Below the pieces are notes generated by a model. That model worked only from the letters and a program-made list of their open reading frames with translations. It did no database searches and was not told the origin of the DNA. A stretch of DNA of 64,000 nt from Porticoccaceae bacterium (GTDB lineage Bacteria; Pseudomonadota; Gammaproteobacteria; Pseudomonadales; Porticoccaceae), in NCBI GenBank assembly GCA_018663035.1, contig JABJEX010000013.1, forward strand, positions 4,409-68,408, read 5' to 3'. Shown here one piece after another: positions 10,298-14,685 of this stretch. A program made the position numbers and the translations under genes. Within the stretch, counting starts at the first letter, position 1. Every line of letters starts with the position of its first letter.

Positions 10298-12763
10298 ATG
10301 ATTCAATCTCGATTAACTCAGCTTGTTCGGCAGCCGCTGGCTGTAGCTTTTGCGGCGCTGATTCTCGCGGCCTGCGGCGGCGGTGGGGGAAGCACTACAC
10401 CACCAGTAACGCCAGGGCCTGTCAGTGATACTACTGCACCGGAAATAACGCTAGTAGGCTCATCTACAATGACCCACGAACAGGGCACCGAATTCTCCGA
10501 TCCAGGTTACAGCGCTTCTGACAACGTAGATAGCAATCTGACCGTTAGCGTCGATGGTGAAGTCAACACAGCAGTTGCAGGCGAATACAGCATTACCTAT
10601 TCGACTAGCGATAGTGCCGGTAACAGCACTTCAGAAACTCGCACGGTTACAGTGGTAGACACCACTGTGCCGGTTATCACTCTTTCAGGTGACGCGGAAG
10701 TATCTGTGCAACAGGGCGATGCCTACACAGACGCTGGCGCAACGGCTAGCGACAGTGCCGATGGCGAAGTTGCCGTAGTCACCTCTGGCAGCGTAGACGC
10801 AAATACTGCGGGTCAATATGTTATTACCTATACCGCAACTGATGCAGCGGGTAATCAGGCCACGCTTACCAGAACAGTCACTGTTGACGAAATTGATACG
10901 GGCGTTATCGGGGGCATCGCTGGCGATTGGCGATTGTCGCCAGTGGCTAACGCTCTGGGTGTAGGCCCTAGCCAGGGCGATATCAGCTGGTGGTCAAGCT
11001 CAGAGGAAGATGTGAACGGCCGCGGATGTCTCTTTGATGATATCTATCGCTTTGCGGAGGATGGCTCATTCTCTAACCTGATGGAAGGCTCTACTTGGGT
11101 TGAACAGTGGCAGGGCGGTGCTGATAGCTGCGGTACACCTGTTGCTCCTCATGATGGGTCTAATGCAGCCACCTATACCTACAACGAAACAGCTGCCACC
11201 CTTACGCTTCAGGGCCTCGGCGCACATATTGGTCTATCCAAGGCATTTAATGGCGGTGAGCTGGCCTCCCCAGCGGATGCAGTTGAATCTATTGTGTACT
11301 CAGTGGTGGAAATGAGCGCCACCGAAATGACGCTGGATATTGAGATCGCTAATGGTGCTTACTGGCGCTTCATGCTCACTAAACTTGATAATGCCGATAT
11401 AGCGCCTGATTTAAGTATTTTAGACAATGGTGTTGCTAGCGCAGAATGGGACACTGGAGTAGTTATCATTGATGAAGCCAAGGCCTGGGGCCGCTGTGAT
11501 TCAGGTGATGATGCCTCATGTCCAAGTGCGAGCTGGACGGTAGTAAATGACGCTGACCGCGGTAATGTTTTGCAAATCAGCCATGCACCAGCGGCGCAGC
11601 TTGGCTTCGTTATCGTGCAGACGTCTACGCCCTATGACCTGTCAGCTTATGCAGGCGGAACCATTGAATTTGATGTAAAAATCATTAGTGGCGACAGCAA
11701 TCTGACCTTAAAATCAGAATGTACCTTTCCCTGTACATCTGGTGATTTCGCTCTTGGCGCAGTGCAGGGCAATGACTGGGTAGCTATATCTGTCAATGTA
11801 AATGATCTGGTTGATCAGGGGCTCAGTCTATCGGCTGTCGACATTGGCTTGGCTATCTGGGCAACTAATCATGACTCTACAGTGTTCCAGATTGACAATG
11901 TTCGCTGGGTAGCCAATCCCAATGGGCCAACGTTTGGCACGGGCAATACTGGCGGCACTATTTCTGAGTGGGTCAAGGCAGATCCCAGCATAGGCTATGT
12001 TACGCCAACAGAATATGCGGGCTATAACCTTGTCTGGGCCGATGAGTTTAATGGCACAGATCTGGACACTACTCAGTGGAAATTCGATATTGGCACCGGC
12101 AGTAATGGCTGGGGTAACAATGAACTCGAGTACTACACTGAGAACAATGTCAGTGTTGAAAACGGATTGCTGGTCATTGAGGCTCGTAAAGAGACCTTTG
12201 GTGGCAGAGCCTATACTTCTTCACGCATCAAAACTCAGGACAATTTCTCTTTCAAATACGGCCGTGTAGATGCCAGAGCAGTTGTTGCAGAGGGTAAGGG
12301 GCTGTGGTCAGCTATCTGGATGCTGGGCCAGAATTTTGCTGAGGTCAGCTGGCCTCATAGTGGTGAGATTGACATAGTCGATACCATTGGTGGCCCAGGC
12401 AATGAGAATTCAGCAGTTCACAATGTCTATTGGAATAATGGTGGCGTTGGCGCAGCTTACAGCCCCGCCTCAGCAGGCACTAATCACGTACTCTCTGGTG
12501 GTGAAACCTATTCTGACACTTTCCATGTGTTCAGCATCGAGTGGACCGAAGATCAGATTATCTGGTACGTCGATGATGTGCAGTCGCACGTGGTAGATGT
12601 CACCGATGGTTCAGATCTTGCAGAAGCTGTTCGAGCAGAGTTCTTCTTGATTCTGAACGTAGCTGTTGGAGGCAACTGGCCTGGTAAGCCGATCACATCT
12701 ACCCAGTTCCCTCGCGGTATGCTGGTAGACTATGTTCGTGTCTTCCAAAAGACTGCTCCCTAA
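10298..12763 (+). CDS. Multidomain surface lipoprotein: 2x Ig-like (DUF5011-type), putative glycan-binding modules and a C-terminal GH16 (laminarinase-like) domain with a variant active site
   Basis: Lipobox LAAC; two TTxPxITLxG...RTVTV Ig repeats; GH16 motifs LVWADEFNG, WGNNELEYY, YTSSRI and KYGRVDARA. The catalytic motif reads EIDIVD instead of ExDxxE. Confidence 0.85.
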   Translation: MIQSRLTQLVRQPLAVAFAALILAACGGGGGSTTPPVTPGPVSDTTAPEITLVGSSTMTHEQGTEFSDPGYSASDNVDSNLTVSVDGEVNTAVAGEYSITYSTSDSAGNSTSETRTVTVVDTTVPVITLSGDAEVSVQQGDAYTDAGATASDSADGEVAVVTSGSVDANTAGQYVITYTATDAAGNQATLTRTVTVDEIDTGVIGGIAGDWRLSPVANALGVGPSQGDISWWSSSEEDVNGRGCLFDDIYRFAEDGSFSNLMEGSTWVEQWQGGADSCGTPVAPHDGSNAATYTYNETAATLTLQGLGAHIGLSKAFNGGELASPADAVESIVYSVVEMSATEMTLDIEIANGAYWRFMLTKLDNADIAPDLSILDNGVASAEWDTGVVIIDEAKAWGRCDSGDDASCPSASWTVVNDADRGNVLQISHAPAAQLGFVIVQTSTPYDLSAYAGGTIEFDVKIISGDSNLTLKSECTFPCTSGDFALGAVQGNDWVAISVNVNDLVDQGLSLSAVDIGLAIWATNHDSTVFQIDNVRWVANPNGPTFGTGNTGGTISEWVKADPSIGYVTPTEYAGYNLVWADEFNGTDLDTTQWKFDIGTGSNGWGNNELEYYTENNVSVENGLLVIEARKETFGGRAYTSSRIKTQDNFSFKYGRVDARAVVAEGKGLWSAIWMLGQNFAEVSWPHSGEIDIVDTIGGPGNENSAVHNVYWNNGGVGAAYSPASAGTNHVLSGGETYSDTFHVFSIEWTEDQIIWYVDDVQSHVVDVTDGSDLAEAVRAEFFLILNVAVGGNWPGKPITSTQFPRGMLVDYVRVFQKTAP

Positions 12764-12777
12764 GATCTAACAGACAG

Positions 12778-12806
12778 GTATCTGGCCTCGCTTGGAGGCC
12801 GGATAC
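12778..12806 (+). terminator. Hairpin between the two GH16 genes (terminator or mRNA stabiliser)
   Basis: 12-bp stem GTATCTGGCCTC-GCTTG-GAGGCCGGATAC with one G-U pair; the U-tail is weak. Confidence 0.5.
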
Positions 12807-12871
12807 TCTGGTCTGTATAGTTATAGCAAGACCAGCCTAACTAGGCTGCATCAATTCCCAAGGGCTCTTCT

Positions 12872-13954
12872 ATGCGTACTCTATTGATAGCTAGTTTAAT
12901 TTCACTACTTGTCGCCTGCGGCGGAAACACCACTTTCAGCCCCAGCCAACCCATCATCGATATAACGCCTCCAGTTATTACACTGCAAGGATCCTCCTCA
13001 CTCACTATTGAACAGGGGTCATCCTACAGCGAGCTCGGAGCATCGGCAGTTGATGATCAAGACGGCAGCCTAGAGGTCGAAATTTCAGGGACTGTAGGCT
13101 CCGAACCTGGTGCCTACACACTGACCTACAGCGCTACAGATAGCGCTAACAATTCTGCGTCAACCAACAGAACAGTCACTGTGATTGCAGCAACTGGCAG
13201 TGCCCAGCCAATTGATGGAACAAAATGGTTTCAACAAACCATTATTCCCAATGGCTCAGGCTGGTTTAATAATGAGCAGCAAATCTACACAGATCGCACT
13301 GAGAACAGCTACGTCAGCGACGGCACCTTAAAAATTGTTGCCAAGAGAGAGCAGTTTACCGATCAGGGTGTTACCAAGCAGTTCACCTCAGCACGACTCA
13401 ATTCTAAATTTGCCTTTAAATACGGCCGAGTTGAAGTCAGAGCCAAGCTCCCCTCAGGGCATGGCACCTGGCCGGCGATATGGATGTTAGGGAAAAACAT
13501 TAATGAGCGAGGAGCCTATTGGCAGCAGCAAGGTTTTGGTAATGTGGGTTGGCCACACTGTGGCGAGCTAGACATCATGGAGCATTGGGGCCGCAACCAA
13601 AACTACGTGCAAAGTGCTATTCACAGCCCCAGTAGTTACGGCGGCACCATCAACCATGGTGGACAGTATGTGAGCACAGTGTCTACAGACTTCCATACCT
13701 ACAGTATGGAGTGGTCGTCTGAGCGAATGATTTTTAGCGTTGATGGCACAGAGCACTACACCTATGACCCAGTAGTTAAAGACGCTGATAGCTGGCCCTT
13801 TGACGCTGAAATGTACCTTCTACTCAATGTTGCAATACAGGATGGTATCTCATCAGCTTTTAATGAGAGCGAAATGGAAATCGACTATGTGCGTATCTAT
13901 AGCCTAGATGCTACCCCTGAAGACGCACCCATCTGGTCTGACGAGTTTAACTAA
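12872..13954 (+). CDS. GH16 endo-beta-1,3-glucanase (laminarinase-like) lipoprotein with one Ig-like domain
   Basis: Lipobox LVAC; one DUF5011-type Ig repeat; intact WPHCGELDIMEHWG (ExDxxE); FTSARL, KYGRVEVRAKLP and WPAIWML motifs. Confidence 0.92.
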   Translation: MRTLLIASLISLLVACGGNTTFSPSQPIIDITPPVITLQGSSSLTIEQGSSYSELGASAVDDQDGSLEVEISGTVGSEPGAYTLTYSATDSANNSASTNRTVTVIAATGSAQPIDGTKWFQQTIIPNGSGWFNNEQQIYTDRTENSYVSDGTLKIVAKREQFTDQGVTKQFTSARLNSKFAFKYGRVEVRAKLPSGHGTWPAIWMLGKNINERGAYWQQQGFGNVGWPHCGELDIMEHWGRNQNYVQSAIHSPSSYGGTINHGGQYVSTVSTDFHTYSMEWSSERMIFSVDGTEHYTYDPVVKDADSWPFDAEMYLLLNVAIQDGISSAFNESEMEIDYVRIYSLDATPEDAPIWSDEFN

Positions 13955-13969
13955 AAGAGAGTTCCGTCT

Positions 13970-13990
13970 GGCAGCCAACCACCGGCTGCC
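13970..13990. terminator. Hairpin between the convergent GH16 and pyrF genes
   Basis: GGCAGCC-AACCACC-GGCTGCC, lying between the two stop codons. Confidence 0.45.
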
Positions 13991-14685
13991 TAGAGCGATT
14001 GGTTGATCTTTCTGAGGACTGCGGTGGGGTTTTCTGCCTGAGTAATGGGTCGACCAATCACTAAAAAGTCACTGCCCATTGCCACTGCATCGATAGGACT
14101 GACGATTCTACGCTGGTCGTCTGCGGCACTTTCTGGCAAGCGAATTCCCGGTGTAATCAACTTAAAGTCTGAACCCAACCCTCGCTTCAGAGCCTGGGCC
14201 TCCTGAGCGGAGCAAACTACGCCATCCAGACCACAGCCTTGCGTCAAGCGCGCCAGGTGCAATACCTGATCACTGGGGCTGCGCTGCACCCCTAACTCGG
14301 CCAAATCCTCTTGGTCCATGCTGGTCAGCACCGTCACCCCTATCAGCAGCATGTCACTGCCCTGCTGATCTAATGCGCGCTTGGCAGCGCTCATCATTCT
14401 TGAGCCGCCTGAGGCATGCACGTTGGCCATCCAGACACCTAGATCTGCCGCGGCACAAATAGCCTTCGCCGTGGTATTGGGAATATCATGAAACTTGAGG
14501 TCGAGAAAGACATCAAAACCGCGGTTTACTAGTGATCTCACTAGCTGAGGCCCCGCCCTAGTAAATAACTCCTTACCCACCTTAAGCCGGCATTCGCTGG
14601 CATCTAACTGCTCAGCCAGAGCGAGGGCCGCCTGCTCATTATCAAAATCTAGAGCGACAATAACGCGGGAATTTGAAGAAGTCAT
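13990..14685 (-). CDS. pyrF: Orotidine-5'-phosphate decarboxylase
   Basis: [37 protein letters not shown] and LVIGRPIT motifs. Start at MTSSNSRV. Confidence 0.98.

Follow-up and report, generated by a model that had tools for sequence, protein, structure and literature searches.

A Porticoccaceae GH16_3 lipoprotein that appears to carry the first strand of its catalytic domain at the C-terminus

Two GH16 genes lie next to each other in the window, the stretch of 64,000 nucleotides analysed here, and the second of them raises a question about strand order. The first (gene 10298..12763) opens its catalytic domain normally, with YNLVWADEFNGTDLDTTQW, as the original prediction had stated. In the second (ORF 12872..13954, + strand), the canonical GH16 strand order, with WxDEF at the N-terminus of the domain, is absent; a WSDEFN sequence closes the protein instead. 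Is this sequence a leftover, a terminal signal or an artefact, or is it the first strand of the fold, placed last?

Layout of the ORF and of its tail

Direct translation of ORF 12872..13954 gives a product of 360 amino acids, which opens with MRTLLIASLISLLVAC, contains the lipobox LVAC and consists, in this order, of a lipoprotein signal peptide, an Ig-like domain and a GH16_3 laminarinase core. The Ig-like domain ends in ...NRTVTVIAATGSAQP and IDGTKWFQQ... comes next, with no W-x-D-E-F in the translation between the Ig domain and the core. The C-terminal end of the product is ...MEIDYVRIYSLDATPEDAPIWSDEFN, followed by TAA. The translation agrees with the earlier statement that the Ig domain of the second GH16 runs into the core without a WxDEF strand, and WSDEFN was located exactly where it had been placed, at 13934-13951, with the stop at 13952-13954.

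Features of the ORF. Residue numbers refer to the 360-residue product.
12872..12919, + strand: lipoprotein signal peptide, residues 1-16 (MRTLLIASLISLLVAC16) with lipobox L-V-A-C16, from the sequence; AlphaFold pLDDT is below 50 at residues 1-22
12977..13183, + strand: bacterial surface Ig-like domain, residues 36-104 (Pfam PF16403, E = 7.9e-19; strands at pLDDT 86-97)
13184..13210, + strand: linker AATGSAQP, residues 105-113, after the last Ig strand NRTVTVI; no WxDEF, and no strand by DSSP at 106-118
13211..13900, + strand: GH16_3 core from the second to the last canonical strand, residues 114-343 (IDGTKW ... EIDYVRIY), from phmmer, Pfam PF00722 and Foldseek
13565..13582, + strand: catalytic motif E232-L-D234-I-M-E237 (nucleophile, helper Asp, acid/base), from the sequence; E232, D234 and E237 are invariant in a 66-sequence alignment
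13901..13930, + strand: connecting loop SLDATPEDAP, residues 344-353, between the last canonical and the relocated strand; block 341-350 at pLDDT 95
13931..13951, + strand: relocated first strand I354-W-S-D-E-F-N360, from conservation, logos, AlphaFold/DSSP, SCLam alignment and codons
13952..13954, + strand: stop codon TAA directly 3' of the relocated strand, from the sequence

The tail of the product is thus laid out as EIDYVRIY-SLDATPEDAP-IWSDEFN and then TAA. The linker AATGSAQP is found where canonical domains have the loop after their first strand; the canonical logo there is F-D-D-D-G-A-I-D, and the query reads ...S-A-Q-P-I-D. By motif reading, the N-terminus matches the lipobox pattern [LVI][ASTVI][GAS]C (SLLVAC16, with G at +2), and the consensus of the homologues is ACGG. 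The exact 360-residue product is absent from the protein collection, and an NCBI member (P0304) has 290 amino acids; the public gene call seems to start 70 residues late, leaving out the lipoprotein signal and half of the Ig domain.

Conservation and predicted structure of the C-terminal strand

The position of the strand was scored on an either/or basis in 212 related GH16 domains from pooled searches. It follows the last strand in 129 of them (permuted) and is N-terminal in 83 (canonical); domains with both copies (0/212) or with neither (0/212) were not found in this set. Among the best 120 homologues from a collection of 5.8 billion proteins, 85 have W[SA]DEF[NDE] 6-11 residues after DYVRVY, two are fragments that were not scorable for strand position, and in the remaining full-length matches WSDEF stands where it normally does, some 128 residues ahead of ExDxxE. 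These canonical matches are mostly Bacteroidota-type proteins with a T9SS sorting domain. PF26113 is listed for all homologues. The arrangement predicted from the one protein is therefore conserved in a clade, as the 129 permuted domains of the 212 indicate.

Conservation within the permuted form was followed in an alignment of 66 members, which share 57-88% identity with the query. D357, E358 and F359 never vary, W355 is conserved to at least 90%, and the connecting loop between this block and the core is variable in sequence and length (consensus xxAxxSxxP). In the permuted homologues 6-11 residues separate the end of DYVRVY from the Trp. The logo of the tail, [PL]-[VI]-W-[SA]-D-E-F-[NDE], coincides with that of the canonical first strand, L-[VI]-W-S-D-E-F-[DN]. 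At 15 genomic loci the tail is encoded by varying codons (D by GAT in 9 and GAC in 6, E by GAG in 8 and GAA in 7, F by TTT in 11 and TTC in 4). The amino acids of the tail are kept while the codons vary synonymously, which indicates purifying selection on the tail.

Nine of these 15 loci end right after DEF[ND], and their stop, be it TAA, TAG or TGA, is at one and the same position; four are one residue longer and two continue into further domains. Among all members the chain ends directly after DEF[NDE] in about 59%, and within two residues of it in 84%. Where the permuted domain is internal, the strand is kept directly after DY[VI]RVY and further domains come after it (L094, L003 and P0266-9). 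The same was found in nine multidomain proteins (among them P0136, P0151, P0168, P0171, P0195, P0207, P0215 and P0254) from a representative-protein search with the whole protein as query, in which giant Ig-repeat proteins dominated owing to the Ig domain of the query. In L094, with an open frame of 1868 aa, the internal domain reads ...DYIRVYQSDDLVWSDEFNSESDVDSDGDG.... As the strand is kept when the domain is internal, it is not a C-terminal signal.

By our own estimate from typical amino-acid frequencies, W[SA]DEF[NDE] is expected by chance at about 4e-8 per position, and it recurs in the same place in 129 homologous domains. An assembly or frameshift artefact was considered and ruled out, since the arrangement recurs in at least 129 independent sequences, and different stop codons occupy the conserved stop position. 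To judge from the sequences, the arrangement is a conserved one, neither a remnant nor an artefact.

The AlphaFold model of the query has a mean pLDDT of 87. Its tail block 351-360 reaches pLDDT 93, and DSSP assigns a strand to residues 355-357 but none to the stretch between the Ig domain and KWF (residues 106-118). In the model of a homologue with a 5-residue loop (P0003), a strand at 334-345, a turn at 346-350 and a strand at 351-356 were obtained, all at pLDDT 93-97; as modelled, this is a beta-hairpin of the last canonical and the relocated strand. These models may reproduce a learned GH16 fold instead of testing the position of the tail. In Foldseek the query model matched ZgLamA (4bq1_A) with E = 5e-26, a TM-score of 0.83 normalised by the target and 45% identity, and matches 1-42 of the 50 listed were GH16 or glucanase entries, as judged by their titles only.

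A fragment search against PDB sequences was also carried out. The tail, TPEDA-PIWSDEFN, aligned to residues 20-33 of the SCLam chain (6xof; IPSDYKLVWADEFN), which is its N-terminus, and the preceding LLNVAI...DYVRIYS aligned to residues 235-267 of the same chain, its C-terminus. The query tail thus matches the beginning of the SCLam chain and the stretch before it the end, and such non-sequential homology is the defining mark of circular permutation. No PDB chain with the contiguous permuted arrangement was recovered in this search, and no solved structure of any member was found.

The relocation of the first strand to the C-terminus, which had been proposed for this protein, is upheld by the conservation in the clade, the matching logos, the non-sequential alignment to SCLam and the tail strand in two AlphaFold models. 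The original prediction had turned on whether the tail would be modelled as ordered or another segment would supply the first strand; the tail is an ordered strand (pLDDT 93) and no other segment is predicted as first strand. The evidence supports the tail as the element that would fill the first-strand/Ca2+-site position, its proposed three-dimensional slot.

Family assignment, Ca2+ site and competing explanations

The product scored 81.5 bits with PF00722, against a cut-off of 22, over residues 144-340. The beta-jelly-roll of GH16 is present in the predicted structure (AlphaFold and Foldseek), and the GH16 catalytic pattern E-x-D-x-x-E is formed by E232, D234 and E237. The GH16_3 pattern WPA ... 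W[ML][ML] ... WPx is also found, as W200-P-A, W204-M-L and W227-P-H; the commonest residues of the third motif, WPx, do not include the H of the query (Viborg et al. 2019, PMC6827312). Since WxDEF lies after the last canonical strand and not before IDGTKW, the protein is a permuted variant of GH16 and not a canonical member. The best PDB matches (ZgLamA, TmLam, RmLam, PfLamA) are enzymes that we take to be GH16_3 in CAZy.

ZgLamA of Zobellia galactanivorans (4BQ1, 4BOW, 4BPZ) was the top match by both sequence and fold. In phmmer, query residues 115-343 aligned to residues 26-255 of the 4bq1 chain with E = 2e-60, and the first 25 residues of that chain, strand 1 included, were without an N-terminal counterpart in the query. 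Both proteins have the ExDxxE and WPA...W motifs, and they have in common an insertion of about 12 residues (NERGAYWQQQGFGN versus NETGNYFGEQYGN), which ULam111 lacks and which is presumably the loop that bends the ZgLamA cleft for laminarin. They differ in that the first strand of ZgLamA is N-terminal and its chain ends right after DYVRIY, whereas the strand of the query comes after DYVRIY. Canonical GH16_3 domains of Bacteroidota (for example P0088, P0103, P0112 and L015) have a core up to 72.5% identical to that of the query and a strand 1 of the form LVWSDEF[DN]; unlike the query they carry this strand N-terminally, belong to another phylum and bear a PF18962 T9SS sorting domain, where the query is a lipoprotein.

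In solved laminarinases, strand 1 and the last strand share the convex sheet, and Ca2+ is held by one or more residues at the end of strand 1, by a Gly in the turn between strands 3 and 4 and by the DYVRVY Asp (PMC7961093, PMC5595797). The ligands in SCLam are the main-chain O of E28 (in WADEFN), G72 and D258 (in DYVRVY) (PMC7961093); the numbering of the PDB chain and of the paper differ by 3 residues in the 6xof alignment. In ULam111 the ligands are Asn14, Gly54 and Asp229, and strand 1 (residues 6-11) and strand 15 (224-235) are both in sheet B (PMC5595797). By phmmer-alignment equivalence of ULam111 to the query, Gly54 corresponds to G151 and Asp229 to D338. G151, D338 and E358 are invariant in the 66-sequence alignment.

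With the observed linker lengths, an antiparallel register with the Glu beside the Asp would leave 9, 5 or 4 residues in the loop. Applied to P0003, the same register would predict exactly the strand boundaries of the AlphaFold model. The shortest observed linkers are still no shorter than a minimal hairpin, with loops of 4-5 residues in this register. Given the register, the hairpin and the invariant Ca2+ residues, the most likely role of the tail is to complete, in cis, both the convex sheet and the putative Ca2+ site. The Ca2+ ligand predicted from the tail is the main-chain O of E358, and possibly N360 as well.

The product would then be a surface or periplasmic lipoprotein, a ZgLamA-like GH16_3 endo-beta-1,3-glucanase with a jelly-roll circularly permuted by one strand. 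The chain would enter the catalytic domain at the loop that normally follows strand 1, pass through the last canonical strand EIDYVRIY, turn via the 10-residue loop and end in IWSDEFN. Within the convex sheet the relocated strand would lie antiparallel to the last canonical one and pair with it; this pairing would set E358 next to D338 and, with G151, rebuild the conserved GH16 Ca2+ site. With that site rebuilt from E358, D338 and G151, the tail is proposed to act in cis as a structural part that the domain cannot do without. As E232, D234 and E237, the GH16_3 aromatic motifs and the ZgLamA-type insertion are intact, an active laminarinase is expected from the sequence.

Three other explanations of the tail were weighed. 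The tail might fill the strand-1 slot of a neighbouring molecule, so that the enzyme would form domain-swapped dimers or donor-strand oligomers at the cell surface. Terminal strands that hang on a flexible loop, here of 10 residues, are classic substrates for 3D domain swapping, and the conservation evidence fits complementation in trans as well as in cis. With only 4-5 loop residues, as in many members, a tight intramolecular hairpin is favoured, however; the strand is confidently placed in both monomer models, and the internal copies in large multidomain proteins keep the same geometry, so that we regard a swap as improbable. That the tail serves sorting, secretion or recognition and has nothing to do with the fold is less likely still, and we consider it scarcely credible. 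The stop at DEF[NDE] in about 59% of members, and within two residues in 84%, does resemble a terminal motif, yet the motif occurs at the same distance after DYVRVY even with hundreds of residues following, and canonical domains of the family have the identical motif as their N-terminal strand. The tail is also without a hydrophobic or transmembrane segment such as is found in known C-terminal sorting domains.

The tail could also be an inert leftover of a lost downstream GH16, in a domain that works without its first strand or uses the linker between Ig and GH16 for it. Tandem GH16 relatives do exist (P0138, P0260, P0266-9), and 245 columns are covered when Foldseek aligns the model to 4bq1, somewhat above the 230 of the sequence alignment. 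Against this, D, E and F stay the same in all aligned members although their codons change synonymously, and the stop keeps its position; not one of the 212 domains is without the strand or has two; and DSSP, which makes the tail a strand (pLDDT 93), finds none at 106-118 in the linker. The stop of the ORF lies only 35 nt from a convergent pyrF-like gene, a gap that leaves no decayed second domain hidden downstream. An inert leftover is thus very unlikely. The remnant alternative of the original prediction may describe the route by which the strand came to its place; it fails for the present state, in which the codon evidence marks the strand as an integral part of the domain under purifying selection. 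The product is very probably a one-strand-permuted GH16_3 lipoprotein endo-beta-1,3-glucanase with its tail acting in cis.

Origin, precedents and genomic setting

The closest canonical cores come from Bacteroidota and reach 72.5% identity with the query; the maximum for a pair of one permuted and one canonical core is 78%. In quick unconstrained ML trees the permuted label needs 3-4 changes, which fall across poorly supported forks. A tree constrained to one permuted clade was 65 lnL units higher and was not rejected (p-AU = 0.92); a single origin is therefore compatible with the data, though not proven by them. Duplication followed by loss is the textbook route to circular permutation, and tandem GH16 proteins occur among the relatives (P0138, P0260, P0266-9). 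No evolutionary intermediate was seen in the 212 scored domains, nor with an artificial-tandem query (best 120 of about 7,900 matches).

Two sets of candidates were set aside. P0266-9, the only candidates that the artificial-tandem query brought up, were rejected as intermediates, being an already permuted domain fused to a complete canonical GH16. L015, from a MAG labelled Flavobacteriaceae with a tblastn match reaching residue 358, was rejected as a permuted form from Bacteroidota, as it is canonical. As no intermediate was found, we infer the origin by duplication and partial loss only provisionally. The arrangement would have arisen once, most likely by duplication or fusion and then loss, from a canonical ancestor of the type now found in Bacteroidota, and would since have spread within Porticoccaceae (SAR92 group).

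Full-text searches for permutation together with GH16, laminarinase or beta-glucanase, which covered part of the literature, returned only two cases, that of Fibrobacter succinogenes (PMC4606783) and engineered Bacillus enzymes (PMC8513176). The 1,3-1,4-beta-D-glucanase of F. succinogenes is described as a natural circularly permuted GH16 in a passage of PMC4606783 that refers to Tsai et al. (2003, J Mol Biol 330:607). Like the query it is a natural permutation of the GH16 jelly-roll with the native termini joined; it differs in belonging to the lichenase subfamily (GH16_21) and in its motif, ExDxE against ExDxxE in the query. In the Fibrobacter lichenase the new termini are mid-fold and a large segment is transposed. 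The query is not of this type: its transposed segment has no more than 7-8 residues, and its chain is cut in the loop between strands 1 and 2. Engineered permutants of the Bacillus 1,3-1,4-beta-glucanase, for example CPM59 (PDB 1CPM), have been reported (PMC8513176). They resemble the query in that the adjacent GH16 N- and C-termini are joined and the chain is opened elsewhere with a native-like fold, and differ in being man-made, cut at Phe59 and of the lichenase subfamily. The GH16 subfamily roadmap makes no mention of permutation. A one-strand GH16_3 permutation with the first strand last thus appears undescribed, and it would represent a second natural cut site in the GH16 jelly-roll, distinct from that of Fibrobacter.

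The homologues are annotated in their sources as ordinary 'family 16 glycosylhydrolase' or 'beta-glucanase'. The Pfam model ends the GH16 module at DYVRVY, as does the dbCAN family model. Constructs or annotations cut at this point would remove the predicted essential strand and its Ca2+ ligand. The Porticoccaceae/SAR92 group has been linked to the consumption of algal laminarin in spring blooms (PMC8371827, PMC10108472), and the domain boundary matters for the laminarinases of such consumers. Permuted and unpermuted cores that are 72-78% identical also provide an unusually clean natural system for studying the origin of permutations and their price in folding and stability. A bolder reading, which we put forward only tentatively, is that an entire clade of abundant marine SAR92/Porticoccaceae laminarinases stems from one recent one-strand permutation and so offers a natural pairing of permuted with unpermuted enzymes at more than 70% identity, that most chains have been selected to stop at the Ca2+-binding residue, with the alpha-carboxylate of N360 completing the site, and that constructs made to the annotated boundary would be misfolded or inactive.

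The permuted form was found in 32 of 121 sampled genomes of the family Porticoccaceae, in 5 of its 20 genera, and in 16 of the 17 same-genus genomes listed, the source genome of this ORF included. Among 401 genomes of the order Pseudomonadales it occurs only in Porticoccaceae, and the named records with it are Porticoccaceae MAGs and strain MOLA455. In the family genomes the permuted gene usually adjoins a canonical GH16 gene, as in the window. In at least nine of them (G015, G019, G030, G034, G043, G046, G095, G116, G120) the two genes are on the same strand, about 100-550 bp apart and 36-43% identical. The permuted and the canonical GH16 form a conserved two-gene unit.

In the window this unit is flanked by housekeeping genes (pyrF-like, L31 ribosomal protein and priA-like). 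An inverted repeat, GGCAGCC-N7-GGCTGCC, is present at 13970-13990 between the convergent GH16 and pyrF-like genes and overlaps the pyrF-like stop; as no T tract follows, it was not called as a terminator. A promoter and terminator scan of 12650-14100 gave no more matches than shuffled sequence.

In the metagenomic proteins P0266-P0269 (644-667 aa), an Ig domain and a permuted GH16, tail included, are joined through about 45 aa of linker to a canonical GH16, which is complete and of the type of the first gene in the window. They are a Rosetta-stone style link of the two adjacent GH16 genes, in the opposite order. In the upstream canonical gene (10298-12763), E-I-D-I-V-D is read at about 12365-12382, where the acid/base Glu is expected (SGEIDIVDTIGG); the second domain of P0266-9, which is homologous to it, reads EIDIME. 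Locus L094 (565-3795, G108:C3) has an ORF read over more than 1077 aa within its open frame of 1868 aa, with CBM-like N-terminal modules before the internal permuted GH16, runs of Asp-rich DxDxDG repeats of the Ca2+-binding type and a GDWKLAP...WWS...CFFDDIFRF module in common with the first gene of the window. In the representative library, the PF16403-type Ig-like module recurs 20-50 times in giant proteins of 1,600-5,200 aa (P0121-P0135 and similar).
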